DNA of 64,000 bases, taken from NCBI GenBank assembly GCA_043228905.1, contig JBHGNT010000001.1:10664001-10728000 (forward strand), written 5' to 3'. Of this stretch, positions 547-37,400 are shown one piece after another; the stretch's first letter is position 1; each line of letters starts with the position of its first letter. Under the pieces are notes generated by a model, which was not told where the DNA came from, searched no databases, and saw nothing but the letters and a program-made list of their open reading frames with translations. This stretch comes from Azolla caroliniana (taxonomy: Eukaryota > Plantae > Polypodiophyta). A program made the position numbers and the translations under genes.

Positions 547-1339
547 TGTCGTGAAGAAAACCGTCCATAAGCGGAATCGGCGCACCAAGGCGTGGGAACC
601 GGTTCTTCACGCCCGCACGCTCCAAGTTGTACATAGAAGCGAATTAGGAGGATAATCGGCAGGAACGGGCCCTAACACAAGTGGAGACAAAGACCGCGCG
701 AACAGTCTTCTCGGTCGCGCGCGCGAGCTAAGGAACTGTACGAGTCGGCGGCGTAACTACGCGGATGCGTGAAGAACGGAGCGGATCCCTGTTCGAAAGG
801 GACAGGGAATAAAGCTGACATGACGGCCTGCTCGTCGGCCTATATAAGGAGCTGGAAAGAGCGTTTGCAGGCATCTCGCGCAGAGAGGACGAAGTGCTGT
901 CGGACCGTTTCTGGACGCTTCTCTCTCTGTTTCCTTCCTTCTTGAGCTCCATAGCTTTCTGTGCAGGGTCCCGAGGAGGCTCGCGCTGTTTCGAGGAACG
1001 CCCGAGTGCTTCCGGCAGCACCTCCGACCTGCTGCCCCTTTGTGCGTCGAAGCGAACAAGCATCGGCATCTGTTCGTCGGCCTGTTCGGTTGTAACCAAC
1101 CTGTGCCCCCATCGAGGGTTGTAGTCGTGTTAGCCATTTTTGTTAATATACATATTTAGTCATTCGCATCTGTCTGTGTCAGTGTCTGTTCGCGTTCTCC
1201 GTGCTGAAGGGCCGTGTCCCTGTGTATCCCCGGTCCTGCGTAGCCGGTTCTCTCTCTTTCTCCTCCCTCGCTTGCTCTTTGGTTCGAGACCCCCGCGGTC
1301 CCGCCTCGTTTCCACACGCACTTGCATAATATCTCGACA
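547..1339 (+). repeat. E1 5' LTR
   Basis: TGTCG...CGACA termini and TATA box CTATATAAG near 840. Direct repeat of 7058-7850 with roughly a dozen substitutions by eye. Confidence 0.97.
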
Positions 1340-1343
1340 TCTT

Positions 1344-1361
1344 TGGTGAACCCGACGTGAA
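1344..1361 (+). promoter_or_regulatory. Primer binding site for tRNA-Trp. Also at 17854-17871(-), 20826-20843, 45961-45978(-) and 53665-53682.
   Basis: TGGTGAACCCGACGTGAA is the reverse complement of the plant cytosolic tRNA-Trp(CCA) 3' end (UUCACGUCGGGUUCACCA, recalled from memory). It lies 3-4 nt after the LTR. Confidence 0.9.
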
Positions 1362-1383
1362 GGAGGCGGCAGAAGAGCAGAAG

Positions 1384-3510
1384 ATGAGGGGGTCGGATCT
1401 TGCAGAGGCCATGGCTTCGGCCGTGGATCTGATTGTATACGCGCGCGAGGGCACCGGTGCCCTCGACAGAGCTATTGAGGCGATCGTCGGCACGATCGGC
1501 CGGTTCGATGGGAAGGATGCCACGAAGTATTTGGCGTCGTACGGTGCAGAGATGCTGATGCGGGACATTCCGGAAGAAAGGCGTCTTGCCGGATTTCCCC
1601 GAGTGGCGATGCCGAGCATCCATGCGGAGGTGCTCGAGGTGCGGGCGGAGAGCCGTACCTGGGAGGAGTTCGAAGGTCGGCTCCTAGAGAAATACGGGCT
1701 GGACGACGCGCTCCGGCTTTCGAAGCGAAGGTTCATGGAATGGGTGGAGTCCCCGGGGAAGGGAAGAAACGCGTCGGCACTCCTCCGGGAGTTTGAGGAA
1801 AACTTTGCGCGCCTTTCGGCGCTCGACCGAACCATCCTGGACACGAGCCGGGTCTTGCTGTTTGTCAAGTCGGTCGACGAGCGGGATCGGGAGCAAGTGG
1901 GCCTCTTGCTGGAAACCGAAGACGGGCTCACTACCGACTGGGCGGCTGTCAAGAAAGTCTGTGGCCGTTTCGACAAACGGCGAGAATGGGCGGATAACGG
2001 GGCAACCGGGTCGGGCTCGGTCGCAGCAAGGAAACTCGAACCAGCACCACAGGTGCGAAAGGAAGAGACCCGAGAGTGGTTGGAAACCGGTTCGGCTTCG
2101 ACCGGCGTAGTCAGAGGCTCAACCGGAGGAGCGGCGCTGGAGGAATTGACGAGGGCGATAAAGGACCTCCAAATCGCGCAAGCCCGAAGGGAAGGTGGCG
2201 AACCGGCTCGTGACCGACGGCCGACGGCAGGAAACAGGTGCATGTGGTGCGATGAAGTCGGCCACATTCGGAAGGACTGCGGCGACTTCGCGGAGGCGCT
2301 GAGGAACAGGGTGGTGTACCTGTGGGAAGGACGGGTGCATGCCAGCGACACCCGAAGGGCCCTGAGCCGAAATGACGGGCGAGGTGGTATGAAAAGGTTG
2401 ATGGAAGAGGCGGCGGCCCGACACGCGGAAACCGTCCACTACTCGGCGTCGGCCGACATTCGAGTCGGGGGCGGCGAGGCCCGAAGGGAAAGCAAAGCCG
2501 GATTCTGGCCGACGATGCTGGAAGGCCTTGCCGGTGCAAGGCTTAAAAGGGAGGAATCGGACCGTGCGGAGAAACGGGTACGGGAGATGACCGGGTGGAG
2601 CGACCCGGTCGAGGAAAAGACGGGCTTCGTGGAAGCCGCTTGCCAGAACTACGAGGCTCTGGTAGAAGAGAAGCGGGTGGGGAAACCCGGGACGACCGGG
2701 CCCTCACAACGATACGAGACCCGGTCCGGGCCACGACGGGACGAAGCCGGCGGGGCCGGTACGCAAGATAAACCCCAGAAGGGCGGGTACCGTCTGGGGA
2801 CGGAGATAGAAAGGACCACGGACTTACGAAAGGTCCTGGAGGAACGGATCCTCGACAGCAAGGTGGAGCTGTCGTTACGAGAGGTGCTGGGAATCGCCAA
2901 GAAGGAGTTCCACGACTCCATCGTGGACTTGGTGAAACGGAAGAGGCTGTCAACGGAGACAGAACCGGAAAGACCGGTGGAAGTGCGGACGACGCACCTA
3001 GACGACATGGCGCTGGGAGACGAGTGGGCGGAAAGCCACTATTCGAGACCACACTGGGCCCGAGCGACCACGGAAACCCCGGTGAAGATCGGCGATGTCC
3101 AGGAACCGGTGATAGCTTTGGTGGACCACGGATCGGAGATCAATTTGATGTCCATGGACTTCTATAAGAAGGGCAAATGGCCGATCAACACCAAGCATGG
3201 GTGGAAAATAAGGGCAGCAACGCGCGCCACCGAGGAACTGCACGGGGCCTGTCCGAATGTGCGAGTCAAGATCGGCGACATCGAGATTGACCAGCACTTC
3301 TTCGTGCAGGAGACGTCTTCGCATCCGGTCATACTGGGAGAGCCGTACATCACGGCGGCACGAATGGAGACCAAGGTGCTGGACAATGGTTCGGCCTACA
3401 CGAGGGTCAAAAGCCAAGACGGGCGCCATTCGGTCCAGTTTCTGACGGTACGGCCGAACCACGAACGTAACCGCGACTCCCTCGGTTCCGAAAACCGAGA
3501 GGATTTTTAG
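1384..3510 (+). CDS. gag: E1 Gag-protease polyprotein (intact ORF)
   Basis: ATG conserved in all copies that keep their 5' end. Zinc knuckle CMWCDEVGHIRKDC. Aspartic protease-like ALVDHGSEIN...VILGEP. Confidence 0.9.
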   Translation: MRGSDLAEAMASAVDLIVYAREGTGALDRAIEAIVGTIGRFDGKDATKYLASYGAEMLMRDIPEERRLAGFPRVAMPSIHAEVLEVRAESRTWEEFEGRLLEKYGLDDALRLSKRRFMEWVESPGKGRNASALLREFEENFARLSALDRTILDTSRVLLFVKSVDERDREQVGLLLETEDGLTTDWAAVKKVCGRFDKRREWADNGATGSGSVAARKLEPAPQVRKEETREWLETGSASTGVVRGSTGGAALEELTRAIKDLQIAQARREGGEPARDRRPTAGNRCMWCDEVGHIRKDCGDFAEALRNRVVYLWEGRVHASDTRRALSRNDGRGGMKRLMEEAAARHAETVHYSASADIRVGGGEARRESKAGFWPTMLEGLAGARLKREESDRAEKRVREMTGWSDPVEEKTGFVEAACQNYEALVEEKRVGKPGTTGPSQRYETRSGPRRDEAGGAGTQDKPQKGGYRLGTEIERTTDLRKVLEERILDSKVELSLREVLGIAKKEFHDSIVDLVKRKRLSTETEPERPVEVRTTHLDDMALGDEWAESHYSRPHWARATTETPVKIGDVQEPVIALVDHGSEINLMSMDFYKKGKWPINTKHGWKIRAATRATEELHGACPNVRVKIGDIEIDQHFFVQETSSHPVILGEPYITAARMETKVLDNGSAYTRVKSQDGRHSVQFLTVRPNHERNRDSLGSENREDF

Positions 3511-3566
3511 AGAGGACTGCCAAGGCGTGGGGCCGCGACAGTCCGGATGCTCCGGGAAAACCCCAC
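3501..3566 (+). other. Putative -1 programmed ribosomal frameshift signal (slippery heptamer plus pseudoknot)
   Basis: G GAT TTT TAG, a 6-nt spacer, and stems GGACTG/CAGTCC and GTGGGG/CCCCAC. The -1 frame is open into pol. The arrangement is conserved in six copies. Confidence 0.8.
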
Positions 3567-6500
3567 ATCTGTACGATAAAACCGTGTAGAATAGGTAGGA
3601 AATTTTGCTTCTCCGACAGCGGAGCATGTACGATGGTCGGCATCGCCGGCCGAGAGAAAACAAAGACGGAGGGGAGACTTCGGGCGTGCGGAGTTCTCGG
3701 CCCTGACGAAGAAATCGACGGAGCCGTGGAGGCAGTCTCCTTCGACGACACCTTGGGAATGCTGGGGAAGGTAGTCGAAGAAGACCTTAACGAAGACCGG
3801 ATGATACCGGTATGTTCCGAAGAAATGTATGAAGTCATCGCGGACTTCGGTCGAGGGCTCGAGTCGGAACGGACGGCCCGAGTTAGCACCAAGTACAAGA
3901 CTGTGGACCAGAAGGTGAGGCCAGTTGCGGCGCCCTTACCGGAGGGCAGCGAATCCCGAATCAAAGGGGTTGCATCGGACCCCAGCTTACGAGATCCGGC
4001 CTGCATAGGACACGCCTTCACCAACGAGACGCTCCGCGAGCTGAAGATCGGTGGGGGCGGGTTCCTACTGCCGGTGGAGGAAGACCGGTTTCGGAGAATG
4101 CTCGGAAGGCACGGGAAAGCCTTCGCATTCTCACCGGAGGAAATCGGGTGCGTAGACCCGACAATCGTAGAGCCAATGGTGATATTCACGGTACCGCATG
4201 TACCGTGGAATCTCAAGCCAATCCGGTTCCAAGAGCTCACATCCCGAAGTTGATGGAGCTGTTGAAGCAGAAAGTTGATATGGGCATTCTCGAGCCGTCG
4301 AGCGCCCCATATTCAAACCGATGGTTTACAGTACCAAAGAAAAACGGATCGTTGCGCTTCATTCAGGACCTGCAGCCGGTCAACAGAGTGACCATTCGGA
4401 ACGCAGGGATCGGACCGACCATAGACGAGTTCGCGGAGGCCTTCGCCGGAAGGTCGATTTACTTGGTCGGTGATCTATACTCAGGGTACGACCAGTTCCA
4501 GCTAGCCGTGGAGAGCAGAGACATTACGACGATGCGAACTCCCCTCGGCCTAGTGCGGATGTGTACACTGCCGCAAGGAGGGACCAACTCGGTGGCCCAC
4601 ATGGTGAATGCAATGAACAAGGTGCTGAGGGACTGCATCCCGGACATCACCATGCCGTTTCTAGACGACATCCCGATCAAGGGATGCCCGGTAGAAGAGA
4701 AGGACGAGACGATCGGGCCGGACGGATGCCGGCGATTCGTGATGACGCACATCGACGACTGCGAGAAGGTGCTGCAAAGGCTAGAGGATGCGAGGCTCAC
4801 CTTCTCGGGGGAGAAGTCAGCCTTCGGGCAGTCGGAAATCATGGTGGTCGGACATTTATGTGGACCATATGGCCGGAAACCGTCTCCGGCAAAGGTAGAA
4901 GCCATCTCCGCGATGAAGTCTGATTGCAGCTCGGTCACGGAAGTACGAAGATTCTTGGGAGCATGCGCCTTCTACCACATATGGATCCCGCATTACGCGC
5001 ACGTCGCGGAGCCGCTGTACGGATTTGAAGAAAGGGCGAAGATTCGAATGGCTAGACAAGCACACGGAGTCGGTCCGGAAGCTGAAGGAGGCGCTTTCGG
5101 CAGCACCGGCGCTCCGAAAGGCCGTCTACAGGAAGGGCACCCCAGTGTACATAACGGTTGACACGAGTCCGACCGAAATCGGGTGGGTCGTCAACCAAGA
5201 AGACGAGGACGGCAATCGGTTTCCGATCCGATTCGGCGCGAAGGTCCTCAGTGAGCGGCAGCGAGGATACGCCCAGGTTAAACGCGAACTCTGGGGTATC
5301 GTTTCGGCGGTGAAGGCCGACAAGGACTATCTGATCGGGACAGAGGTAATCATAGAGACGGATTGCATGCCGATTCTCGGCATGGTTTCCGGATGCGCGA
5401 CGCCGGACCTGGCAATGCTCAGGTGGATAGCGTACATCAAGTCCCTGGACCCGGAAATACGACACATTTCCGGGAAAGACAACGCCATGGCCGACATGCT
5501 TTCGAGGGCGAGGTTCGATGACGAGGGCGGCATGGTTTCGGAGGACGAAGAGGTCGGCGTGGACTTCTTCGAGGCATCATACGTAACAACCGACGGGACG
5601 AGCACTCTGGCGCTTAACGACTTCGACGCGAGCAAGTACGACGGGGAGTGGCTGCAGATCGGCGGGTTCTTGAGGACAATGGCGCCGGATGCGTCATGGA
5701 CGAAAGACGAGGCCAACCGGATCCGGAAGAAAGCGTACCGGTTCTTTCTCCGGGATGGCTATCTATGGAAGCACCCGAAGAAGAGGGACGGCGCTCCGCT
5801 CCGGGTGGTGGCGATGAAGGAAGAACAGGAGGAGCTGCTGACGGCCTACCACGACAGCCCTTGGGCCGGACACCGTGGAACTTGGGCCACGTTCGAGAAG
5901 ATAAAGGAGAAGTACTGGTGGCCGGGACTGTACCGGGACGTGCATCTATACGTGACAACTTGCGAGAGCTGTTAGATGCACTCCGTGGTCCGACACCGGG
6001 ACGAGCTTCACCCTACGTACCCTCCGACCATCCACTTCAAATGGATGGTAGATCTGGTGACGATGCCAATGGGGGTAGGACAGATGTGGTACCTGGTCCT
6101 AGCGCGGGAGGATCTGACGAACCAGGTGGAAGGCCGGGCCCTTCCGAACAAAACGATCGCGGCCGTATGTCGGTTCCTAATCGAGGACGTGATATGCCGG
6201 TACGGGTGCGTCGGGAAGATCGTGGCTGACCGAGGGGAGTTGGACGCCGAAGAAGCCGCGGAGCTGTTCGACCGGCTGGGAGTCAAGCTCTCGCTCACCA
6301 CTGCGTACAATCCGGAGGCGAATGGAAAGGTGGAGCGCGGACACGGGCCGATCGTCAAGGCGTTGGTTCGGGCATGCGGAGGCCGAGTCGGTAACTGGCC
6401 GCGGCTGCTACCTTATGCTTTGTGGGCAGACCGGACCACGCACAGTTCGGTAACCGGGTACATGCCGACGGAGCTCATGTTCGGCCAGAAGCCGATCATG

Positions 6501-6986
6501 CCGATGGAACGGACGATCTCCTCGTGGGCAACGGTCGACTGGAGGGACGAGATGAGCCGGGAGGAGTTGTTGGCCGCGCGTATACGACAGCTCGAGCAAA
6601 GACCGGAGGACGTGGAACTGGCTGCGGAGAAGCTCCGGGTGGTGAGGACAAAGAACAAAGCTAGGTTCGACCGAACGCACCGGCTCCGACCGAAGAAAAT
6701 CGAAGAAGGTGACTGGGTGCTCGTCTACGACAGCAGTCTCGACAACCAGCACCGAGCTACACGGAAGTTCGCACGAAGGTGGTTCGGGCCTTACGTGGTA
6801 CGGAGCGCCAATGACAACGGGACATATCACCTGGCGGAACTCGACGGCACGAGAATGGCGATACCGGTTGCAGGGAAGCGGATCAAAGCGTTCAATAAGC
6901 GACACGACGACGAGCCAGACCCGGCTCTCCTAGTCAGCAGTGACGAACTATCCGAAAACGAGGAAGAACCGACGGGCGAGGAATGA
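3501..6986 (+). pseudogene. pol: E1 pol (RT-RNase H-integrase), disrupted
   Basis: ORF pieces 3633-4253, 4148-5161, 5025-5975 and 5976-6986. Frameshifts near 4225 and 5025 and a TAG at 5973, relative to sister copies. Confidence 0.92.
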
Positions 6987-7042
6987 AGACGGGCCGGTTT
7001 TCTCCGTCCCAACTCTCTTGGCGCATACCGGAGGATGCGCGG

Positions 7043-7057
7043 TTAGGTGGGGGCGGA
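7043..7057 (+). promoter_or_regulatory. Polypurine tract of E1
   Basis: TTAGGTGGGGGCGGA directly before the 3' LTR; the same or a close variant precedes the other 3' LTRs. Confidence 0.85.
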
Positions 7058-7850
7058 TGTCGTGAAGAAAACCGTCCATAAGCGGAATCGGCGCACCAAG
7101 GCGTGGGAACCGGTTTTTCACGCGCGCACGCTCCAAGTTGTACATAGAAGCGAATTAGGAGGATAATCGGCAGGAACGGGCCCTAACACAAGTGGAGACA
7201 AAGACCGCGCGAACAGTCTTTTCGGTCGCGCGCGCGAGCTAAGGAACTGTACGAGTCGGCGTCGTAACTACGCGGATGCGTGAAGAACGGAGCGGATCCC
7301 TGTTCGAAAGGGACAGGGAATAAAGCTGACATGACGGCCTGCTCGTCGGCCTATATAAGGAGCTGGAAAGAGCGGTTGCAGGCATCTCGCGCAGAGAGGA
7401 CGAAGTGCTGTCGGACCGTTTCTGGACGCTTCTCTCTCTGTTTCCTTCCTTCTTGAGCTCCATAGCTTTCTGTGCAGGGTCCCGAGGAGGCTCACGCTGT
7501 TTCGAGGAACGCCCGAGTGCTTCCGGCAGCACCTCCGACCTGCTGCCCCTTTGTGCGTCGAAGCGAACAAGCATCGGCATCTGTTCGCCGGCCTGTTCGG
7601 TTGTAACCAACCTATGCCCCCATCGAGGGTTGTAGTCGTGTTAGCCATTTTTGTTAATATACATATTTAGTCATTCGCATCTGTCTGTGTCGGTGTCTGT
7701 TTGCATTCTCCGTGCTGAAGGGCCGTGTCCCTGTGTATCCCCGGTCCTACGTAGCCGGTTCTCTCTCTTTCTCCTCCCTCGCTTGCTCTTTGGTTCGAGA
7801 CCCCCGCGGTCCCGCCTCGTTTCCACACGCACTTGCGTAATATCTCGACA
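7058..7850 (+). repeat. E1 3' LTR
   Basis: Direct repeat of 547-1339. Confidence 0.97.
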
Positions 7851-10800
7851 CCGTGTGCTTCCGGCAAAGACACTCCTCTTCTGCGACATTCTGCTCCTGT
7901 GGGTGCGTGAGTGGGACCCGTGTTGGGACCCTTGCCGGCGTGCTGGTTGTAAATGACAGTTTGTATTCTCTGTTTAATTGAAGTCTAGCAGTCTCGTCCT
8001 TTCTTGCTCTTGTTGTCTCCCTCGTCTCTTGTGCAGTCGATCTTTCACACACACACACACACACGAATACACACCCGCCTGCTCTTCTCCTCCATCTTCT
8101 TCGTTCTCACTCTCTTTCTCTCCTTGGTTCGAGACCCCCGTGGTCCCGCCTCTGTTCCTACACGTACCCGCGGAAGACCGCGACAACGGGTTTGACGACT
8201 CGCTTTGGATGTCAAGGCGGGACTTCATGGCGTGGGTGGAAAGCCCCGGAAAGGGGAGGAACACGTCGGTGCTCCTCCAGGAGTTCGAAAAACGGTTCGT
8301 TGTCGACGCTGGACCGAACAGTGCTCGAAACAAGTTGAGTACTGCTATTTGTCAAGTCGGTGGACGCGCTCGACAGGGAAAAGGTGGGTCCCCTATTGGA
8401 AACGGACGAAGGGCTCACAACAGACAGGGCCATGGTAAAACGGGTCTGCAGCCGTTTTGACAAACGGCGTGATTGGAGCGACGGAAGCTCGTCGGGGTCG
8501 GGGCCGGTCCCGGGGAGGAGGCTCGAGGAGCCGGTATCGGTGCCGGCCGGTAGGAAGGAAGAGACCCGAATCTGGCCAGAGTCGGGGTCGGCATCGAACG
8601 ATGTGGTCCGAGGCCCATCCGGAGGAGCGGCTCTGGAGGAGCTGACACAGATGGTGTGCGACCTGCAGATCGCACAGGCCCGGAGAGACAGCGACGAACA
8701 ACCTCGCGACCGGAGGTTGCCGGCTGGGCAAAGGTGCATGTGGTGTGACGCGATCGGTCACATTCGGAAGGATTGCGTAGATTTCACCGACGTGCTCAGG
8801 ACCAACGTGGTGTACCTCTTAAACGGGCGGGTGCACACGAGCAAGACCCGGAGAGCCCTAGAACTGAATACAGGGCGTGGCGGAATGAAGAGGTTGATGG
8901 AAGAGGCCGCGACATGGCATGTCGAAGCCGTTAACAACTCAGTGTCGGCGGGAATTCAGGTCGGGGGTGATGAGACCCGGAAGGCGAAAGACTCCGGATT
9001 CTGGCCGCTAGTGCTAGAAGGCCTCTCCGGAGTTCGGCTGAAGAAGGAAGAGGTGGACCGCGCGGAACAACGGGTCCAGGAGGTCACCGGTTGGGACGAT
9101 CCGGTCGAAGAGAAAATGTGCTTCGTAGAAGCCGCTTGCTAGAACTACAAGGTTCTGGTGGAGGACAAATGGGCAGGAAAGGCCGGAGGGGTCGGTCCCC
9201 CGCAGAGGTATGAGACCCGGTTCGGACCGAAACCGACCGGTGCCGGCAACCCAAGCGCGCCGGACGGGAAGAAGCAGGCGGGGTTTCGGTTGAGCACCGA
9301 AATCGAAAGGACCACAGACCTGCGAAAGGTCCTGGAGGAACGTATCCTCGACAACAAAGTGGAGCTGTCATTGCGGGAGGTGCTGGGAATCGCCAAGAGG
9401 GAGTTCCACGACTCTATCGTAGACTTGGTGAAGCGGAAGAGGCTCTCGACGGAGCCGGAACCGGAGAAGCCGGTGGAGGTGCGGACAACGCACCTGGAAG
9501 ACGAAGCCCTAGAAGACGAGCTAGCGGGAAGCCACTACACGAAGCCGCATTGGGCCAGGGCAACTACGGAAACCCCTGTACGGATCGACAACGTTCTAGA
9601 ACCGATGGTGGCGTTGGTAGACCATGGATCCGAAATCAACCTGATATCCACGGATTTCTACAAGAAGGGTAAATGGCCGATCAACACCAAGCATGGCTAG
9701 AAGATACGGGCAACGACGCGCGCCACGGAAGAACTACATGGGGCCTGTCAGAACGTACGGGTGAAAATCGGCGATGTCGAGATCGACCATCACTTCTTTG
9801 TGGAGGAGACGTCCTCGCATCCGGTTATACTAAGAGAGCCATATATCACGGCGGCACGGATGGAGACCAAGGTGCTAGACAACGGTTCAGCCTATGCAAG
9901 AGTCAAGAGCCAGGACGGGCGTCGCTCGGTCCAGTTCCTAACGGTGTGACCAAACCACGAGCGTAACCGCGAGGCCCTCGGCGGCGAAACCTGAGGGGAT
10001 TTTTAGAGAGGGCTATCAAGGCGTGGGGCCGCAATAGTCCGGACACCCGGGAAGAACCCCACAAATGTACAGTACGGAAGAAGACCTGTACCATAGGTAG
10101 GAAATTTTGGTTCTCCGACAACAGAGGTTTGTACTATAACCGGCGTCAGCGGCCGGGAGAGGAAGCGAGCAGAGGAGCGGCTCAAGGGATGCGGAGTCCT
10201 CTTCCCCGACGAAGACATCAGCGGTGCCGTGGAGGCGGTCTCTTTTGACGACACCTTGGGCGAACCGCGGAAGGTGATTGGTGAAGACCTTAGAGAAGAC
10301 CGGGCCGTTCCGGTAGGGTCAATGGGAATGTACGAAGTCATTGCAGACTTCGGGGGAAGGATCGGGTGGGATCGGACGGCCCGCGTGGATACAAAGTACA
10401 AGACTGTGGACCGGAAGGTGAGGCCAGTTGCGGCACCCTTGCCGGAGGGCAGCGAGGAGCGGATAAAAGGGGTCGCGTCAGACCCAAGTTTACGGAATCT
10501 GGCTGGCATAGGGCACCGGTTCACCGACATAACGCTACGGGAGCTCAAGGTCGGTGGGGGTGGCTCTGCCGGTGGAGGAGGACCGGTTTCGGAGAATGCT
10601 CGGGAGGCACGGGAAGGCTTTCGCATTCTCACCGGAGGAGATCGGGTGCATAGACCCGACAATTGTCGAAACGATGATGATCTTCACGGTACCGCATGTA
10701 CCGTGGAATCTCAAGCCGATTCCAGTGCCGAGAGCTCAGATCCCGAAGTTGATGGAGCTCCTGAAGCAAAAGGTGGAGATGGGCATCCTCGAACCGTCGA

Positions 10801-15100: not shown

Positions 15101-15714
15101 TCCTCCACCGGCAGTAGGAACCCGCCCCCACCTATTTTTGAGCTCCCGGAGCGTCCCGTCGGTGAAGGTGTGTCCTGTGCGGACCGGATCTCGTAAACTG
15201 GGGTCCGACGCAACCCCTTTGATCCGGGACTCGCTGCCCTCTGGTAAGGGTGCCGCGACTGGCCTTACCTTCCGGTCCACAGTCTTGTACTTTGTGCTAA
15301 CTCGGGCCGTCCGATCCGACTCGAGCCCCTGACTGAAGTTCGTGATGACTTCGTACATCTCTTCTGAACATACCGGTATCGTCCGGTCTTCGTTAAGGTC
15401 TTCTCCGGCTACCTTCTTCAGCATCCCCAAGGTGTCGTCGAAGGAGACCGCCTCCACGGCTCCGCTGATTTCCTCGTCCGGGCCGAGAACTCCGCACGCT
15501 CGAAGTCGAACTTCTGCCCTTGCCTTTTTTCGGCCAACGATGACGACTATCATACACCCTCCGTTGTTGGAGAAGCAAAATTTTTTACTTATCGTACAAG
15601 GTTTCTTCGGTTTCGAGGTTTCTTCGGTTTCTGTTCTATCGTACAGTTGTGGGGTCTTTCCCGAGTGTCCGTACTATCTCGGCCCCACGCCTTGGCAGCC
15701 CTCTTTAAAAATCC
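12190..15714 (-). pseudogene. pol: E3 pol (RT-RNase H-integrase)
   Basis: ORF 12463-15213 has the RT, RH and INT motifs. A 17-nt duplication near 15600, a frameshift near 15135 and a stop at 12463 disrupt it. Confidence 0.9.
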
Positions 15715-20865: not shown

Positions 20866-22992
20866 ATGAAAGGGTCGGATCTTGCAGAGGCCATGGCTTC
20901 GGCCGTGGATCGGATACTGAGCGCACGCGAGGGCGCCGGCGCCCTCGACAGAGCCATTGAGGCGGTCGTCGGTATGATCGGCCGGTTCAGCGGAAAGGAT
21001 GCCACGAAGTATTTGGCGTCCTACGGGGCAGAAATGCTGATGCGGGACATTCCGGAAGAGAGGCGTCTTGCCGGGTTTCCTCGAGTGGCGATGCCGAGCA
21101 TCCATGCGGAGGTGCTCGAGGTGCGGGCGGAGAGCCGTACCTGGGAGGAGTTCGAAGGCCGACTCCTAGAAAAATACGGGCTGGACGACGCGCTCCGGCT
21201 TTCGAAAAGGGACTTCATGGAATGGGTGGAGTTCCACAGCAAGGGAAGAAACGCGACGGCACTCCTCCGGGAGTTCGAAGAACGCTTTGCGTGCCTTTCG
21301 CCGCTTGACCGAACCGTTCTGGATACGAGCCGGGTCCTACTGTTCGTCAAGTCGGTTGACGAGCGGGACCGGGACCAAGTCGGCTCCTTGCTGGAAACCG
21401 AGGACGGGCTGACAACCGACTGGGTTGGGGTTAAGAGAGTCTGTGGCCGTTTCGATAAACGGCGAGAATGGGCTGACAACGGGGCGGCAAGTGCGGGCTC
21501 TGTCACAACAAGGAGGCTTGAACCGGCACCGCAAGTGCGAAGGGAAGAGACCCGAGAATGGCTCGAAACCGGTCCGGCTTCGACCGGCATGGTCAATGGC
21601 TCGTCCGGAGGAGCAGCGCTGGAGGAGTTGACGCGGGCGATAAAGGATCTCCAGATCGCCCAGACTCGAAGGGAAGGCGGCGAACCGGCTCGTGACCGAC
21701 GGCCGGCAGTAGGGAACAGGTGCATGTGGTGCGACGAGGTCGGCCACATCCGGAAGGACTGCGGCGATTTCGCAGAAGCGTTGAGGAACCGGTTGGTGTA
21801 CCTGTGGGAAGGCCGGGTGCACGCCGGCGACACCAGAAGGGCCCTAAACCGAAACGACGGACGAGGAGGTATGAAGAGACTGATGGAAGAGGCAGCGGCC
21901 CGACACGTGGAGGCCATCCACTACTCGGCGTTGGCCGGCATTCGGGTCGGGGGCAGCGAGGCCCGAAAGGAGGGCAAAGACGGATTCTGGTCGGCAATGC
22001 TGGAAGGTCTTGCCGGCGCACGGTTGAAGAAGGATGAAACGGACCGCGCTGAGAGACGGGTCCGGGAATTAACCGGGTGGAGCGATCCGGTCGAGGAGAA
22101 GACGGGCTTCGTAGAAGCCGTCTGCCAGAACTACGAGCCTCTGGTAGAAGACAAGGGAGTGGGGAAAGCCGGAGCGGCCGGGCCCTCACAACGATACGAG
22201 ACCCGATTCGGGCAACGACGGAACGATGCCGGCGGGTCCAGCTCGCAAGATAACCCCAGGAAGGGCGGATACCGACAGGGGACGGAGATAGAAAGGACTA
22301 CGGACCTACGAAAGGTCCTAGAAGAACGGATCCTCGACAGCAAAGTGGGGCTGACATTGCGAGAGGTGTTAAGGATCGCCAAGAAGGAGTTCCACGACTC
22401 CATTGTAGACTTGGTGAAACGGAAGAGGCTGTCGACGGAGACGGATCCGGAAAGACCGGTAGAGGTGCGGACGACGCACATCGACAACTCGGCGCTGGCA
22501 GATGAGTGGGCGGAGAGCCACTATTCGAGGCCACACTGGGCCCGAGCGACCACGGAGACCCCGATAAAGATCGGAGAGGTTCAGGAACCGGTGGTGGCAC
22601 TGGTGGACCACGGTTCGGAAATAAACCTAATGTCCATGGACTTCTATAAGAAGGGAAAGTGGCCGATCAACACCAAGCACGGGTGGAAGATACGGGCGGC
22701 GACGCGCGCCACCGAGGAACTGCATGGGGCCTGCCCGAACGTGCGAGTCAAGATCGACGACGTCGAGATTGACCAACACTTCTTCGTACAGGAGACGTCC
22801 TCGCACCAGGTCATATTAGGGGAACCATACATCACGGCGGCTCGAATGGAGACCAAGGTGCTAGACAACGGTTCGGCCTACGCAAGGGTCAAAAGCCAGG
22901 ACGGGCGCCATTCGGTCCAATTTCTGACCGTGAGAACGAACCACGAGAGGAACCGCGAATCCCTCGGTGGCGAGAACCGGGAGGATTTTTAA
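20866..22992 (+). CDS. gag: E4 Gag-protease (intact ORF)
   Basis: Colinear with E1 Gag-PR. Confidence 0.88.
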   Translation: MKGSDLAEAMASAVDRILSAREGAGALDRAIEAVVGMIGRFSGKDATKYLASYGAEMLMRDIPEERRLAGFPRVAMPSIHAEVLEVRAESRTWEEFEGRLLEKYGLDDALRLSKRDFMEWVEFHSKGRNATALLREFEERFACLSPLDRTVLDTSRVLLFVKSVDERDRDQVGSLLETEDGLTTDWVGVKRVCGRFDKRREWADNGAASAGSVTTRRLEPAPQVRREETREWLETGPASTGMVNGSSGGAALEELTRAIKDLQIAQTRREGGEPARDRRPAVGNRCMWCDEVGHIRKDCGDFAEALRNRLVYLWEGRVHAGDTRRALNRNDGRGGMKRLMEEAAARHVEAIHYSALAGIRVGGSEARKEGKDGFWSAMLEGLAGARLKKDETDRAERRVRELTGWSDPVEEKTGFVEAVCQNYEPLVEDKGVGKAGAAGPSQRYETRFGQRRNDAGGSSSQDNPRKGGYRQGTEIERTTDLRKVLEERILDSKVGLTLREVLRIAKKEFHDSIVDLVKRKRLSTETDPERPVEVRTTHIDNSALADEWAESHYSRPHWARATTETPIKIGEVQEPVVALVDHGSEINLMSMDFYKKGKWPINTKHGWKIRAATRATEELHGACPNVRVKIDDVEIDQHFFVQETSSHQVILGEPYITAARMETKVLDNGSAYARVKSQDGRHSVQFLTVRTNHERNRESLGGENREDF

Positions 22993-25900
22993 AGAGGGCT
23001 GGCAAGGCGTGGGGCCGAGACAGTCCGGACACTTGGGAAAGACCCCACAACTGTACGATAGAACAGAAACCGAAGAAACCTTGTACGATAGATAGAAAAT
23101 TCTGCTTCTCCGGCAACGGAGGGTGCATGATAATCGGCATCGTTGGGTGAGAAAAGGCAAGGGCGGAAGTGCGACTTCGAGCGTGCGGAGTTCTCGGACC
23201 GGACGAGGAAATCAGCGGAGCCGTTGAGACGGTCTCCTTCGACGACACCTTGGGGATGCTGAGGAAGGTTGCCAGAGAAGACCTTAACGAAGACCGGACG
23301 ATACCTGTATATTCCGAAGAGATGTACGAAGTCATCGCGAACTTCAGTCGGGGGCTCGGGTCGGCTCAAACGGCCTGAGTTAGCACAAAGTACAAGGCTG
23401 TGGATCGGAAGGTAAGGCCAGTCGCGGCACCCTTACCGGAGGGCAGCGAGTCCCGGATCAGAGGGGTTGCGTCGGACCCCAGTTTACGAGATCCGGCCTG
23501 CATAGGACACAGCTTCACCGACAGGACGCTCCGGGAGCTCAAAATCGGTGGGGGCGGGTTCCTACTGCCGGCGGAGGAAGACCGGTTTCAGAGGATGCTC
23601 GGAAGGCATGGGAAAGCCTTCGCATTCTCACCGGAAGAGATCGGGTGCGTAGACCCGACGATCGTGGAGCCGATGGTGATATTCACGGTACCGCATGTGC
23701 CGTGGAATCTCAAGCCGATCCCGGTACCGAGAGCTCACATCCCGAAGTTGATGGAGCTATTGAGGCAGAAAGTAGATATGGGCATTCTCGAACCGTCGAG
23801 TGCCCCATACTCGAACCGATGGTTTACCGTACCAAAGAAAAACGGAACGATGCGCTTCATTCAAGACCTGCAGCCGGTCAACAGAGTGACCATTCGGAAC
23901 GCAGGAATAGGACCGACCATAGACGAGTTCGCGGAGGCCTTCGCCGGAAGGTAGATTTACTCGGTCGGTGATCTGTACTCGGGGTACGACCAGTTCCAGC
24001 TAGCCGTGGAGAGCAGAGATATTACGACGATACGAACTACCCTCGGCCTAGTGCGAATGTGTACCCTGCCACAAGGAGGGACCAACTCGGTGGCCCACAT
24101 GGTGAATGCAATGAACAAGGTACTGAGGGATTGCATCCCGGACATCAGTGCCCAGTGGAGGAGAAGGACGAGACAGTCGGGCCGGACGGATGGCGGCGAT
24201 TCGTGGCGACACACATCGACGACTGCGAGAAGGTGCTACAGAGGCTAGAGGATGCGAGGCTCACCTTCTCCGGGGAGAAATCGGCCTTCGGGCAATCGGA
24301 AATCCTGGTGGTCGGACACCTATGTGGACCATATGGCCGGAAGCCGTCTCCGGCAAAGGTAGAAGCCATCTCCGTGATGAAGACCGACTGTAGCTCGGTT
24401 ACGGAAGTTCGGAGGTTCCTGGGGGCATGCGCATTCTACCACATATGGATCCCGCATTACGCCCACGTTGCGGAGCCGCTATACGGGTTGTTGAAGAAAG
24501 GGCGAAAATTCGTGTGGCGAGACGAGCACACGGAGTCGGTCCGGAAGCTGAAGGAAGCTCTTGCGGCAGCACCGGCGCTCCAGAAGGCTGTCTACGGGAA
24601 GGGTGCCCCGGTATACATAACAATGGATACGAGTCCGACCGGGATCGGATGGGTCGTCAACCAAAAGGACAAGAACGGCATTCGGTTCCCAATCCGATTC
24701 GGCGCGAAGGTCCTCAGTGAACGACAACGAGGGTACGCCCAGGTTAAACGCGAACTCTGGGGTATCGTTTCGGCAGTAAAGGCCGACAAAGATTACCTGA
24801 TCGGGACGGAAGTGGTTATCGAGACGGATTGCCTGCCGATTCTCGGCATGGTTTCCGGATGCGCGACGTCGAACCTGGCGATGCTCAGGTGGATAGCGTA
24901 CATCAAGTCCCTGGACCCGGAAATACGACACATTTCCGGAAAAGACAACACCATGGCCGACATGCTTTCAAGGGCGAGGTTTGATGACGAGGGCGGCATG
25001 ATTTCGGAGGACGAAGAAGTCGGCGTGGACTTCTTCGAGGCGGCGTACGTGACGACCGACGGGGCGAGCACTCCGGCACTTAACGGCTTCGACGAGAGCA
25101 ACTACGACGGCGAGTGGCTACAGATCGGTGGATTTTTGAGGACTATGACGCCGGATGCGTCATGGACGAAGGACGAGGCCAACCGGATCCGGAAGAAAGC
25201 ATATCGATTCTTTCTCCAGGACGGATACTTATGGAAGCACCCGAAGAAGAGGAACGGCGTCCTGCTCCGGGTGGTGGCGATGAAGGAAGAACAGGAAGAG
25301 CTGCTGACGGCCTACCACGACAGCCCTTGGGCTGGACACCGTGGAACGTGGGCCACGTTCGAGAAGATAAAGGGGAAGTACTGGTGGCCGGGACTGTACC
25401 GGGACGTGCATCGGTTCGTGACAACTTGCGAGAGCTGTCAGATGCACTCCATAGTCCGACATCGGGACGAGCTTCACCCTACGTACCCTCCGACCATCCA
25501 CTTCAAATGGATGGTAGATCTGGTGACGATGCCGATGGGAGTAGGACAGATGCCGTATCTGGTCCTGGCTCAGGAAGATCTGACGAACCGCGGTCGTATG
25601 TCGGTTCCTGATCGAGGACGTGATATGCCGGTACGGGTGTGTCGGGAAGATCGTGGCCGATCGCGGGGAGCTGGACGCCGAAGAGGCCGAGGAGGTGTTC
25701 GACCGGCTAGGAGTCAAGCTCTCGCTTACCACTGCGTACAATCCGGAGGCGAATGGAAAGGTAGAGCGCGGACACGGACCGATCGTCAGGGCGTTAGTTC
25801 GGGCATGCGGAGGTCAAGTTCGGTAACCGGATTCATGCCGGCAGAGCTGATGTTTGGGCAGAAGCCGATCATGCCGATGGAACGCACGATCTCCTCTTGG

Positions 25901-28102: not shown

Positions 28103-28172
28103 TCTCTCGCTCCTCGGTTCAAGACCCCCGTGGTCCCGCCCCTTTTACACGCATGCGCGTAACAACGCGACA
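27455..28172 (+). repeat. E2 3' LTR (distinct LTR subfamily) with a (CT)n tract at about 28067-28108
   Basis: Starts TGTCGTGAAGAAAACC after the PPT, carries the conserved GACCCCCGTGGTCCCGCC box, and ends CGCGACA. Confidence 0.92.
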
Positions 28173-31100
28173 TATAGACAATGTCTTAGAATTGTGAGGT
28201 ACATGTAAAAATACCTTCTGTCCAGGGTTGAATACACGAGGTTGCCTATGATGATTGGCATAAAAACGGGCTCTATCTTGTTCCCATTTTGTTGGTTTTG
28301 CACCAACATATGCTCGAAGCATGTCCTCAATAATTTGATTTACTCGTTCTGCTTGTCCATCGGATTGAGGATGATTTGTGGAGCTCATGCTCAACGTAGT
28401 TTCTAACTTCTTAAAGACTTGCGTCCAGAAGTCACTAGTAAATTTTGGATCTCGATCACTCACGATATCCATCGGTAACCAATAAAAACGAAATAACTCA
28501 TCAACGAATTGGTAAGCCAATTCAGGAGCTGTTACCGTGGTTTTAGTAGCAATAAATATGGCCATTTTAGTTAGTCGATCAACCACAACCCAGATGGCAT
28601 CATGGCCTTTTTGGGTGCGAGGAAGGCTAATAATAAAATCCATGGATATACTTTCCCACTTATTATTGGGAATGTCCAAGGGATGTAAAAGTCGTACGGC
28701 TTTAAGTCGCTCGGCTTTGTTAACCTCACATTGGTGACATTTAGTCAAATAACTATGTATGTCAGGGCGCATCTTAGGCCAATAGAATTGAGTGGAGATG
28801 AGAACAAGTGTACGATGTATTCCAGGGTGCCCTGCTGAGGGTGCATCATGGCATTAAAAAAGAATTCTCTTTTTTACCTCAGGCAAATTTGGAACACAAA
28901 CCTTCCCATTACGGTAGAGCACATCGTTAGTAATGTGGAAGTATTCCTTCGAGGATGTGGTAGTGTCTGTTCCTGACTCAACTCTTGCCCAGTATTTTGC
29001 GAAATAACTATCATTAGGATACTTTCCTCGAAGGTGATCATAAAGATCTGATGATATTTTAGTGAAGCTAAGCATGTTAACTTCACGGATGCGACTTAGT
29101 GCATCAACGACAGTGTTCATGGAACCTTTACGATATCATATGGAAAAATCAAAGTCCTGGATGAGATCAGCCCATCGTGCCTTACGACCTTTTAGGTCTT
29201 GTTGGTCACAAAAATATTTCAAGGACTCGTGGTTCGTAGTTACCACAAAGCAATTTCCATAAAGATAATGGCGCCATGTTTTGAGCGCATGTATAACTGC
29301 AAATAATTCCTTTTCTTGAACGGTATACTGACATTGAGTAGAATCAAGTTTCTTACTCTCGAATGTTATTGGTTTACCATCTTGATATAAGACAGCACCT
29401 ATAGCATAATCGCTTGCATCGGTTTCAACCTCAAAAGGTTTTGAAGGATCGGGTAAAAGAAGTGAAGGAGCTTTGCATACCAGGCAGGTCCTTGAGTTCC
29501 TTAAAGGCGAGGTCTAGTGTAGCATTCCACACAATAGGTTTTGTAGACTTATGCGTTTGACCTTTTAGAAGATCAGTAAACGGCGTCGTCAATTGGGAGT
29601 AATTACAAAGGGATTTTCGCAAAAACCCGACAAAACCAAGGAATGATCGAACTTCTCGAATGTTCCGAAGAGTGGGGCAAAGTTTGATTTTCTCGATGCG
29701 AGAAGGATCAATTTCAACTCCACGTTCGGTTATGAGATGTCCAAGATAAGTAATTGATTTCTTGAAGAACTCACATTTTGAGATCTTCGCGTAAAACTGT
29801 TTGTCATGCAATGTTTGTAAAACAAAGTGGACATGTTTAGCATGCTCTTGTAATGTACGGCTATAAACTAAAATATCATCCAAGAAAATAACGACAAATT
29901 TTCCAAGTTGTTCTCGGAAAATGTCATTCATTTCTTGTTGAAATGTAGCCGGAGCATTGGTCAAACCAAAAGGCATAACCAAAAACTCGTAATGGCCATA
30001 GCGCGTACGAAATGCCGTTTTAGGAACATCGTCCTCACTTATACGTATTTGATGGTAGCCAGTACGGAGATCAAGTTTCGTAAAATACCGAGCTCCCTGG
30101 AGACGATCAATTAGATCGTCAGCCCGAGGCAAGGGATACGAATTCTTGATCGTCACTTTATTCAAGCGTCGGTAATTAATACACATACGCCATGTGCCCT
30201 CTTTCTTTTTAACCAAGAGAACTGGTGCGCCCCATGGAGATTTACTATAACGTATATAACCCATTCGTAAATAGTCCTTGAGTTGCTTAGATACCTCATC
30301 CTCTTTGGATCGACTTAAGCGATAAGGAGGTATACTTATTGGTGCAATACCAGGTACAATATCTATACAATGGTCTATATTACGTTTAGGAGGTAAGCCA
30401 TCTGGTAGTTCACTCGGAAAAACATCACGAAAATCATTTAAGATTTCGTCAAGTTGTTGTTGTTCAAAATATGTTAATTGAACCGAGACATTATCGATAT
30501 TGTAAACGTGAATGTCCGGATCAAGCACACAATAAAATAGAGTAGAACAAGACAACTCAGATATTGATGGACACGAGGAAACAATCGAGAGGGATTGTTT
30601 TTTTACACATTGAATAAAATGAGTACAATCGTTCAGTACAAATGTAATTGAATGATCAACCCAATCAATAGATAAAGAAGAGCTTTTATTATAAAACCAG
30701 GGATAACCCAGTATTACATCGGTGGTACAAAGATTCATTACATGGAAGTCTACTTCCTCTATATAAGTATCAATAGAAATTCCTAATGAATGAATCGCCC
30801 CGTTGATGTATTGTACTCTTCCATAAGCCAAGTGCACCGTGTAGGTGTGATAACTTACGATGGGTTGGATTCCCCATATCTGAACCAAACGATCATTCAC
30901 AAAATTGTGTGAGCTTCCCGAATCAAATAAAAATTGTACGGGAGATCCATTAATATACCCATTTGCATGTAGTAAATCATTGGGACCCAATACATAGTGA
31001 GGGAAAGAACATTGACAATTACTTAAATGATGTGTATAGACCTGAAGGACATTAGGAATCTGACCTTTATGGTCTGCAACTTTAGCTTTGTTGTCGTGCT

Positions 31101-32180
31101 CTTTCCGTTGGAGCTGTTGACATTGATATTTTGTATGACCCTTCGTGCGATCCATGAATTCGTTGGGTGTCTTGCGTTCCCAACGAATTGCGACTGCTTA
31201 GTCCTGGGTGCTTCGTTGGGTTTGTTGTGGTCCTTCTTTGAAGTGCGTTGATAGCAAGGAAATATTTCAACGGCCTCTTCAAAGTATTTTGGATCCTTAT
31301 CGTGCAAGCTATTAACCAGTTGTCCCCTTTTAGACCCGATTTTTGGATTTGGGTTCTAGCATGGTGGACATAATCTTCTAGTGAGGAAAGTTTCCGATTA
31401 GAGAGGTTCATTAAAGCTTGTGTTGCCTCGGTTCGAGAGGGAGGTTGCAGAAATTGGCCCTTGAAAACTGTGACAAAATCTGTCCAGGTATTGAGCAATT
31501 TCCCCAACGTACGGAGCCCACGCCACCAGGCGGCGGCCTTACCCCCTAGTTCTCGGCCGACATATGCAATCTTCGTACTATCTGGCGTGGGATAGAGCTC
31601 AAAATGAGACTCCCATCGGCCCAACCACGTGCAGATTGCTTCTTCGGTTCTTTCCTTTTTGTCTCCCGTAAATGGCTTAACGACAAACGATGGTTCACCT
31701 TGTCGTTCATCAAGTCTATTAGTCTCACGTTGTAGACTAATGACACGTGCCTCGAGAGCACTTTAAGATTGCCGAAGTTCGGTCATCTGTTGAGCGGTGA
31801 AACTAAGGTATTGGGTTAATTGCGAAAAATACATCTCAATGGACATTTGTCCAGGAGGATTCCCTTGAGTTCCTTCCGCTTGAGCGGAGGACATCGGGTC
31901 GTTATTTTATTTCCACCCAAGCCTCTCGAAAAGAAGTGGGGGGTCAAAGGGTCTTGATGTGGGTGTGACCCGTGGTTCCAATGTAGAGAGTGCCTTCGCC
32001 ATGGCTTCTAGGCGGTGTAGCTCACGTTCCCTTATTTTCAATATTGCTTCCACATCACGTCGAGTTGCTTTGAAACCCGACACCCGAGGACGTCTGGTTC
32101 TTCTCTGGTTTTCTGCCTCATCAATGGAAAGGCCGAGTGGTGCAAGTGTGTCGGCATTCGTTGTCTCCCCCTATTCCTAA
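28173..32180 (-). pseudogene. Degenerate chromovirus-type gag-pol
   Basis: Gag AAAWW motif; protease [11 protein letters not shown]; [42 protein letters not shown]; RNase H ETDAS; integrase WESISMDFI, SDRDPKF, HPQSDGQ. Confidence 0.92.
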
Positions 32181-34448: not shown

Positions 34449-37400
34449 GCTATGCTCAGTATCGTCCGGATGGAAGTCATCTTCACTACTGGGGCAAATA
34501 TCTCGTCGAAGTCCACTCCCTTCTTCTGCTAGAACCCCTTCACCATGATCTTGGCTTTGTACCTTGGGGGGTTGCCGGCTTCTCCCAGTTTCAACTTATA
34601 CACCCACTTGTTTTGGAGTGCCCTCTTTCCTTTCGGCAACTCCACCAATTCATACGTGTGGTTCTCATGCAGGGAATCCATCTCGTCGTGCATGGCACTT
34701 AACCACTTGCGGCTATGGGTGTCATCCTTTGCTTCTTCCGGCTCCCCCTCATCGGTCAGCAGCACATGCTCTGCATCTGGAAATCTCCAGGGGGCTCTTC
34801 TTTCCCAGAGAGGATATCTTCGTCCTCGGTTTTCGGTAACCGGCTCCTGTGTATGTTCTTCATTTGAATCCGATTCGGGGTCTTGTCTGGTTCCGGTTTC
34901 AGCTTCCTCTCCTTCTTCTGCCGGTTCGGTATCCTCACCATAACCAGCTGGTTCTTCGAGTGTCAACCGGCTCCTAGCCGGGTAGGTCTGAATCTCATCG
35001 AACTGATCCTTACCGGTCGACTCAGAGTTCATTATCTTCTTCTCCGACTCCCAGTTGGCAAGGGTCTTGTCCTCCATGAAGATAATATCTCGACTCTAGA
35101 AAACCTTCTTGTCAACCAGATCCCACACTCGGTAGCCGAACTCATCATCGCCGTATCCGAGGAATATGCAAGGTCGGGACTTTGGATCCAACTTTGCTCT
35201 CCGGTCCTTTGCAACATGCACGTAAGAGAGACACTCGAATACCTTCAGATGTCGGTAAGATACTTCCTTACCAGTCCACACTCTCTGCGCCGTCTCTCCA
35301 TCCAAGGGCACTAAGGGTGATCTGTTTATCATGTACGTCGTTGTCGCCAGTGCCTCAGGCCAAAACGTCTTGGGTAACTTGGCATGTGCTAGCATACTCC
35401 AAACCCTCTCCATTATGGTTCGGTTCATACTCTCGGCCATCCCATTGAGTTCCGGTGTCTCCGGCATGGTAAATTTGAGCCAGATGCCCTTCGAACGGCA
35501 GTACTCCTCAAACTGCCCCCGGTATTCGCCTCTGTTATCTGCTTGAACCACCTTCAGCTTCCGGCCGGTTTCTCTTTCCACTCTTGCGTGGAGATCCTTG
35601 AAGACGAATAGCACTTGATCCTTCGTCTTCAACGGTGTGGCTCATAGCTTCCGGCTATGGTCATCTATGAACGTCATGAAGTACTGCGATTCGGCATGTG
35701 ACTTCGTGTCCACTTGACACACATCGAAATGCACCAGCTCCAGTGGTGCATTACGTCTCATCGGTGGCCTTGATCAGAAGGAGGTCCTGTTTTGATCATC
35801 GGCCAAGCAGTCAATGCACCTCTCAAGATTCACGTCCTTCACCGGAATGAGGTTGTCTTCGGCAAGCCTCTTCATCCCCTTCTCACTCATGTGACACAGT
35901 CTTTTGTGCCACAACTCACCGGCAGTGTCGGATGCAACGTTCACTTCTTCTTCCAGGCATAACCAGGCATTCATTAGGTACAACGTGTTGACTTTCTAGG
36001 CCCGAGCCACTATTAGGCTCCCTTTGCTGAACTTCATGACTCCGTTCCAGATGCTACCTGTGAAGCCTTCATCGTCTAGCCGACCAGCTGATATTAGGCT
36101 CGGTTGAACCTCCGGAACGTGTCAGACATCCTTCAGCAGCAACTTGCATCCAGTTGGTGTTGTCAGCCATAGGTCTCCTATGCCGACAATTCAGCATGTA
36201 CCTTCATTCCCCATCCGGAAACAGATAACAAGCATTTCCGGTCCGGGGTAAGGTGGATCGACGCTCTAGAATCGACAACCCATGTTGTCTCGTCGCTAGC
36301 AAGGTTCAACTCACTCTCCTCAGTGATGAGCATCAACTCCTCTTCACTTGCTGCAATTGCCATCGTTCCCTTCCGGTCCGGTCCTCTCCGGTCTTTGCCG
36401 TTCCGGTCTAGTGACCGCTTCAAATCGGTACTATTGGTTTCCTTGTCTTTTTGGAAGTGCCGACAGTTCTTCTGGAAGTGTCCTGGCTTGCCGCAATAGA
36501 AGCAAGTAGGCCTCCCCCTTGACTTTGACCGTGTCCCCGACTTTTCCCGGTTCTAGGGACTACGGTTCCTTTGTCTTCCGCGTTCCGATTCGGTAAGGAG
36601 CGCTTTGGAGTTGGAGATCGTATCCTTGTCTTTCCGACGCGCCTCCTTATCTAGCAAGCTCGACTTGACTCTTGCTAAGGATAATTGTCTTCCTTCCAGC
36701 CCGGCGTTGCCCAAAGTGAAGGGAGGGAACCGAGCAGGAGCAGTGCTAGTACCTCATCGGCGAGAGGTACTTCCAATGATGTTGCCTGGTGAATCAGCCC
36801 TTGGAAGGCATTCATGTGCTCCACCATGCTGGAGCCATCTTGGTACCGGAGTCTTACTAGCTTCCGGAATACCGAAACCTATGAAAGATAGCTTGCCGAA
36901 GCATTAGAAAGAACAATACACACAGAGAGAGAAAGAGAGTGCGCGGGAGAGAGAGAGAGAGAGCAAAACACACTATTTTTCAAAATTATATGAATACTTT
37001 GTGCTCTATATCTACAACGCGCTCATCAGTGCTATTTATACAAGTTCATACGGGACTGTTAGAGGTACGGTGTACTTCAATGCTCACACGAGTATCTGAC
37101 ACTAACTACGAGACTATAACTGCCTAGTCGTCTACCCTATACTAGGCTTCCGGTTACGGATTGGATCCGGCATACCGGCTCCCCAGGTCACCGGTCCTTA
37201 CTGCTTACCGGCTCGGTTGCTCATCGGCATACCGATTCATCTCGCTTACCGGCTCAGGCTTATTCAGCCGATCCGGCTCCGGTTGAGCTTGCCGCTCAAC
37301 ACTCCCCCTCAAGCTCAACCTGAGGTAGGGTCGTTGTGTCAACCTCTGTGGCAGCCGGTTCTTCCAACCGACTTCTCCTGGCATCGCTTCGCCTTGCTCG

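Follow-up and report, generated by a model that had tools for sequence, protein, structure and literature searches.

A predicted −1 frameshift pseudoknot after the protease in Phygy-type retrotransposons of seed-free plants, and a sister branch that may have switched to −2 shifting through loss of a single base

Ribosomal −1 frameshifting on a slippery heptamer followed by a pseudoknot is textbook knowledge, and in Rous sarcoma virus the protease lies within Gag, as it does in the elements described here. In dianthoviruses and umbraviruses the stimulator is a bulged hairpin with long-range pairing, whereas the stimulator proposed here is a local, predicted H-type pseudoknot. Control of the Gag:Pol ratio in plant LTR retrotransposons is known mostly from single-ORF and splicing cases. 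Like Rous sarcoma virus gag-pol (PMC5009743, sections available), the present elements would pass from the end of their first ORF into pol by a −1 shift; the present case differs in being a plant retrotransposon without env, with another heptamer and a compact pseudoknot of 53 nt. The G_GAU_UUU sites of dianthoviruses and umbraviruses, in the available sections of the same review, share with ours the heptamer, a nearby stop and plant ribosomes, and a 5′ stem-loop is likewise found in some of the families studied here. An earlier note on this DNA had recognized GGAUUUU as the dianthovirus heptamer, and those sections of PMC5009743 confirmed G_GA as the XXX triplet in both virus groups. According to the same partial text of this 2016 review, a 2003 survey had turned up only +1-frame plant cases. 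The accessible portions of PMC5580714 and PMC12786077 name no plant −1 signal, and PMC7466625 is silent on ORF, frame, gag, Phygy and splicing.

The earlier note had also stated that most plant Gypsy elements keep the protease with pol, a generalization that requires exceptions. In the part of PMC6317226 available (Additional file 5), Ogre and Retand of the plant Tat lineage are also split between protease and RT. In those lineages the split consists of an intron or a single stop, whereas here it is an overlap with a slippery site. No lineage in the available part of the PMC6317226 table has GAG-PROT overlapping RT-RH-INT, and the ORF organization of Phygy is entered there as 'ND' in REXdb (Additional file 5). 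The openly readable literature yielded no published description of the signal reported below and none of a retrotransposon with a −2 shift driven by a pseudoknot, which does not prove that none exists.

The window analysed here is a stretch of 64,000 nucleotides of the Azolla caroliniana genome. Its element E1 spans 547-7850 on the + strand (7,304 bp) and is bordered on both sides by a CCGT target-site duplication of the NCGN type (543-546, with its twin at 7851-7854). The 5′ LTR (547-1339, TG...CA) is about 98% identical to the 3′ LTR (7058-7850), which is preceded by a G-rich polypurine tract. The primer-binding site (1344-1360) is complementary to the 3′ end of the host tRNA-Trp(CCA); all six host loci fetched by a match to it were tRNA-Trp, and a tRNA-Trp primer site was also present in all six relatives checked, including loci L107 and L108, which are discussed below. 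The tRNA-Trp 3′-end motif itself had 65 matches in the genome, with clusters at C8:17.80-17.82 Mb, C16:4.99-5.11 Mb and C5:10.11 Mb; those on C8, about 1.2 kb apart, are likely tandem tRNA-Trp arrays.

The first ORF of E1 (1384-3510) encodes Gag-PR, with a zinc-knuckle-like CxxC motif in the translation, a DUF4100 domain and a protease, and ends in REDF followed by a stop. The protease domain (3067-3447) was below the cut-off in Pfam (E 0.004), and a profile-based PDB sequence search returned nothing significant. The predicted fold of the last 154 residues of this ORF (pLDDT 81) resembled Ddi1 (RVP E 1.5e-6) and retroviral proteases. Its active-site motif reads D-H-G (3124-3132) in place of D-T/S-G, as it does in all 54 aligned sequences. 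The second ORF, pol (3471-6986), is entered in the −1 frame and comprises a linker, RT, RNase H and integrase, the last three identified by Pfam; in E1 it is broken into several pieces. With a retropepsin fold in the first ORF and RT, RNase H and integrase in the second, the split falls after the protease, and the fold lies before the slippery site, where the earlier note had placed the signal.

Judged by their NCGN duplication, tRNA-Trp primer, domain order and nearest named proteins (from Physcomitrium, Riccia and Adiantum), the window elements are Phygy-type Ty3/gypsy elements. They share with Phygy, as described in the available part of PMC6317226 (REXdb), the 4-bp NCGN duplication, the tRNA-Trp primer site, the GAG-PROT-RT-RH-INT order and a coding region that fills the interior; E1 is slightly shorter than the 7,656-9,968 bp given for Phygy in that part of the source. 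A general Pfam scan of the pol pieces reported no chromodomain, archaeal RNase H or extra ORF. The insertion edges at 547, 20194, 53025 and 62123 all fit NCGN, the edges besides CCGT being CCGG, ACGG and GCGG. E1 adjoins related LTR sequence, and the pol of copy E6 is interrupted by another copy.

The sequence GGATTTTTAR was found at exactly six sites in the window (3501, 9997, 22983 and 60945 on the + strand, 15714 and 43829 on the − strand), while shuffled sequence gave a mean of 0.28 and a maximum of 2. All six are gag ends in the phase G GAT TTT TAR, as the earlier note had reported. Besides E1, they belong to copies E2 (signal at 9997-10062, +), E3 (15649-15714, −), E4 (22983-23048, +), E5 (43764-43829, −) and E6 (60945-61010, +), and every one of the six copies is decayed to some degree. 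The claim that pol follows in the −1 frame in all six held in full for E1 and E5, the only copies in which no stop interrupts this frame between the site and the end of the pre-RT motif (250 and 422 codons). E4 and E6 retain the −1 register and meet a stop in the linker after 55 and 53 codons, respectively. In E2 and E3 the register has shifted through downstream indels, which place the pre-RT motif in frame 0 and frame +1; the gag of E2 is also broken, by a stop 2 codons upstream of the slippery site.

In E1 the slippery heptamer G_GAU_UUU (3501-3507), in zero-frame phase, is followed by a spacer of 6 nt that begins with the gag stop UAG (3508-3513). This arrangement was abundant in the genome, where the pattern of heptamer, 6-nt spacer and stem 1 gave 3,019 matches and the control gave 0. 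Heptamer type and spacer length were coupled genome-wide: GGATTTY occurred 3019 times with 6 nt and 11 times with 5 nt, and GGTTTTY 9 times with 6 nt and 96 times with 5 nt, the mixed layouts being rare, scattered single copies. Metagenome loci were retrieved by protease motifs only. Among the best 80 of 173 such loci, many of them near-duplicates, 76 carried the heptamer with a paired stem 1, and the 4 misses were truncated or rearranged. Pol could be located in 66 of these loci, in the −1 frame in 62 and in the +1 frame in 4; the latter were 2 stop-riddled copies and 2 members of a sister clade (L107 and L108).

Protein sequences pointed to the same site. Gag-PR homologues ended in DF in 63 of 120 cases, and none of these 63 had before the D a residue without a G-ending codon, against a background of 29% (relatedness among the rows inflates the p-value); a G_GAU site requires a G at that place. 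In most of 30 further flagged homologue rows, DF or GF was followed by just a few more residues. The ends GF and NF (P0063, P0098, P0112) suggest more heptamer variants, and G_GAU_UUC, G_GUU_UUC and G_GGU_UUU were seen on the same pseudoknot in L112, L115, L135 and L136. The nine positions 5′ of the heptamer were not conserved in the 27 families with a −1 layout, in which the heptamer itself had been located by pattern. In five families (L079, L125, L140, L091, L112) the −1 frame was closed as little as 1-2 codons 5′ of the heptamer, so that almost no other place to shift is left and the shift site is pinned. A stop stood directly 3′ of the heptamer in 22 of the 27 −1 families. The spacer, invariably 6 nt, is inside the 5-8 nt range given for −1 signals in the available part of PMC3458567.

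The RNA structure was assessed in 29 family representatives (2 window copies and 27 metagenome loci), picked by eye with one per distinct junction; the heptamer and mostly open frames were required, and duplicates, truncated loci and broken loci were left out. An H-type pseudoknot, located with a custom stacking score that is not a validated model, outscored 40 of 40 dinucleotide shuffles in each of the 29 representatives, the shuffles ignoring relatedness. In E1 it consists of the 5′ arm of stem 1 (3514-3525, core 3514-3521), a 1-nt L1 (3526), the 5′ arm of stem 2, GUGGGG (3527-3532), the 3′ arm of stem 1 (3533-3544, core 3537-3544), a 16-nt loop 3 without a conserved hairpin (3545-3560) and the 3′ arm of stem 2, CCCCAC (3561-3566); the predicted L2 is 0 nt. 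Stem 1, of 8-12 bp, and its loop formed an ungapped 31-nt core across the 29 representatives. The first eight pairs were kept in 226 of 232 cells, and over all 12 pairs 85% of cells were paired, with two-sided change in 10 of the 12. The covariation score of stem 1 was 0.43, compared with 0.26 in shuffled controls and 0.08-0.15 when the register was slid.

Stem 2, whose register was fitted to the structure, scored 459 with its own partners against 385 ± 12 with swapped partners, a swap that ignores relatedness. Its sequence had been replaced, with pairing retained, from GUGGGG/CCCCAC to GCGAGA/UCUCGC, ACAGGG/CCCUGU, AUGAGGGU/ACCCUCAU and GCAGGGA/UCCUUGC; the variants lie on separate tree branches, and unrelated stem 2 sequences were present in L131, L108, L140, L125, L133 and L100. 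Covariation over many copies had been set as a check on the structure, and in the 29 representatives both stems covary, as predicted for an H-type pseudoknot 6 nt 3′ of the heptamer.

The structural details given for the window copies in the earlier note fared unevenly. The stem sequences quoted for E1, E2, E4, E5 and E6 match the DNA, and GTGGGG and CCCCAC are indeed invariant among the six copies. Stem 1 pairs as quoted and was drawn too short: its 8-position core is followed by an internal loop and 2 further pairs. Its covariation is real and comes from distant families, most changes within the six copies being one-sided; in E3, for which no stem had been quoted, the second pair is mismatched. 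A small CCGG..CCGG hairpin tentatively placed between the arms of stem 2 had to be abandoned as a conserved part, as it takes the last CC of stem 1 and thus competes with that stem, and it was local to 4 of the 29 families, all from the clade to which the window copies belong. A predicted hairpin overlapping the 5′ edge of the slippery site (3478-3503; z −2.15 in E1) was likewise rejected as a family-wide attenuator-like feature (z < −1 in 12 of 29 families, mean z −0.64). The nested fold of the E1 junction alone was not unusual (z −0.93), and Rfam gave no match at E ≤ 10. Downstream of the pseudoknot, at 3570-3630 and equivalent positions in the window, the motif TGTAC(C/G)ATA (Cys-Thr-Ile in the pol frame) is repeated 2-3 times, with copy-specific duplications.

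The region between the site and RT is a linker of about 100-130 codons. In all 27 families measured it had no stop in the pol frame, compared with 3-23 in the other frames, and its third-position excess was 424 in the pol frame and 269 and 235 in the others. These two properties together indicate that the linker is coding. This bears on the possibility that Pol is translated from a spliced RNA, with the U-run and AG serving as a 3′ splice site or with part of the linker being an intron. TTTTTAG in the window copies does resemble an acceptor, and in Ogre, where the split likewise follows the protease, Pol expression involves an intron (PMC6317226, available part). Gene models from Riccia also bridge the two ORFs. 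The AG is, however, missing from 4 of 29 spacers and occurs in all three phases in the others, a coding and stop-free linker is not what an intron predicts, and splicing leaves the fixed 6-nt distance to a covarying pseudoknot unexplained. No splice joint was seen in poly(A) reads covering the junction at about 7-13x, a shallow depth spread over copies 85-99% similar and over both strands, at which a minor spliced RNA is possible. The non-coding, spliced region between PROT and RT that marks Ogre-type elements is thus replaced here by a coding linker, with no joints at this low depth. Splicing was judged very improbable as the route to Pol. A separate candidate acceptor at about 3603-3619 was discarded; it is not kept in E5 and lies within coding sequence.

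In the Riccia models P0261, P0263, P0265 and P0337, Gag-PR is fused to Pol right after SGF, with about 40 residues skipped. As judged from the protein models alone, these fusions are probably predicted introns laid across a frameshift; a frameshift junction would account for gene callers breaking these elements up or splicing them wrongly.

Polymerase slippage is established for U-runs of this kind, and the U-run might therefore slip during transcription. The structure would then serve packaging, dimerization or pausing, with the shift arising from such slippage or from the heptamer alone. Spacer length, on the other hand, does not vary within a layout and goes together with heptamer type and pol frame, as is characteristic of a stimulator positioned by the ribosome; conservation in the heptamer also extends past the U-run to the first G and the GA. 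A structure-independent shift was considered hardly credible. Pol might also be made separately, by internal initiation or by termination-reinitiation, with the structure acting as an entry signal. In both +1-frame lineages a pol-frame AUG does precede the site, by 2 codons in L107 and by 5 codons in L108 and in the family present in this genome. The two AUGs nevertheless differ in position, and a +1-frame AUG of this kind is present by chance in 9 of the 27 −1 families. None of the 27 has a pol-frame AUG within 8 codons upstream, and their first downstream AUG falls anywhere from codon 3 to codon 110. Overall, separate production of Pol was considered very improbable; it is a weak rival for the −1 families and a real one for the +1-frame clade.

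Pseudoknot-driven −1 frameshifting is therefore, with high confidence, the likely route to Pol in these Phygy-type elements, as judged from comparative sequence data. The reading put forward in the earlier note, of a −1 frameshift with an H-type pseudoknot, agrees with the heptamer conservation, the 6-nt spacer, the covariation of both stems, the upstream closure of the −1 frame and the coding linker, and neither a conserved AUG nor a conserved acceptor was seen. The proposed pseudoknot, 6 nt downstream, would block the entry channel and stall ribosomes on G_GAU_UUU, where tandem tRNA slippage would carry a minority into pol. Most ribosomes would terminate at the adjacent stop to yield Gag-PR, so that protease would be made one-to-one with Gag. 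Slipped ribosomes would read REDF-LERTAK and continue through the linker into RT, RNase H and integrase. The signal fills in the ORF organization of Phygy. It gives this lineage, of which one genome contains more than 3,000 copies, a −1 signal that is well defined and can be tested, and the 29 natural variants form a covariation series.

In the sister clade (L107, L108, L141-L170 and L191-L220), the signal reads AG_GUU_UUU, the spacer is 5 nt, pol lies in the +1 frame and the pseudoknot is kept. L107 has a gag frame of 761 codons and a pol of 1,097 codons in the +1 frame, and the pol of L108 extends over at least 1,148 codons. The genome contained 95-96 pattern matches for this layout, 93 of 96 from this +1-frame family; the layout is one evolutionary event and not 96. 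Among 30 sister loci retrieved by protease, AG_GUU_UUU was present in 29, the −1 frame stopped after 2 codons in 29 and the +1 frame was open to the end of the locus in 15. L107 and L108 formed one clade nested among the −1 families in both quick trees (SH-aLRT 100), one rooted on distant homologues and the other on three −1 families. On these trees the sister clade is derived, and it comprises two lineages.

A single base, the A of GGAUUUU, separates the two layouts. Its absence turns the heptamer into GGUUUUU and leaves the spacer one shorter, and the stop that ends gag in the −1 families falls into the −1 frame. By analogy with described −2 sites, we lean toward a pseudoknot-driven −2 shift as the route to pol in the sister clade. 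It is likewise somewhat favoured that one branch, within a seed-free-plant lineage sharing one conserved frameshift pseudoknot, switched from −1 to −2 by this single-base loss. Slippage by +1 was regarded as less likely, given that UUU is followed by U in one of the two lineages and by G in the second. RNA reads matching the +1-frame family numbered 8, 3 and 0, with none over the junction.

The closest described −2 site is that of arterivirus nsp2TF, GG_GUU_UUU, a −2/−1 site with which the sister clade shares the G_GUU_UUU core and an immediate −1 stop; shorter spacers favour −2 there (PMC4937337, available part). The arterivirus site, according to the same part, is driven by nsp1beta/PCBP through a C-rich protein-binding motif and without RNA structure, whereas the sister clade keeps an intact predicted pseudoknot 5 nt from its heptamer. 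The sister clade is thus like the arterivirus −2 type at the slippery site and is not a member of it. On stem-loops and pseudoknots, the optimal spacer for −2 shifting is 1-2 nt shorter than for −1 (PMC3458567, available part). The U6A case in that source is artificial, whereas the sister clade is natural and the shift would be its sole route to Pol. No natural pseudoknot-driven −2 shift was found in print in the openly readable literature. If the reading is true, replication in the sister clade depends on a natural −2 frameshift that a pseudoknot drives, and evolution has here put the spacer-tension model to the test. A natural pair one base apart should then turn a −1 into a −2 shift with the pseudoknot unchanged, something shown before, as far as the available parts of these sources go, only in engineered systems or where a protein is the stimulator.

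Eight loci related to the sister clade (L221-L225, L227, L230, L231) had a different Gag-PR tail and lacked the pseudoknot core. Seven of the eight had no downstream pol match and two had a 758-codon frame; they are possibly a non-autonomous, Gag-PR-only family. Scanning of viral contigs found no relatives. Look-alike clusters of P0077 in the ESM Atlas, 750-860 aa with DUF4100 and an aspartyl protease, included Basidiomycota, and, judged by these protein clusters, fungal elements may share the Gag-PR layout. Every Pfam match in the window was a transposon domain. A second Ty3/gypsy element (28122-31762, −) has the opposite split, with its gag ORF overlapping a PR-RT ORF (a Tcn1-like layout in REXdb terms), and Ty1/copia pieces and a decayed hAT transposase occupy 34532-39716 (−), 46662-50007 (−) and 57180-59076 (+).
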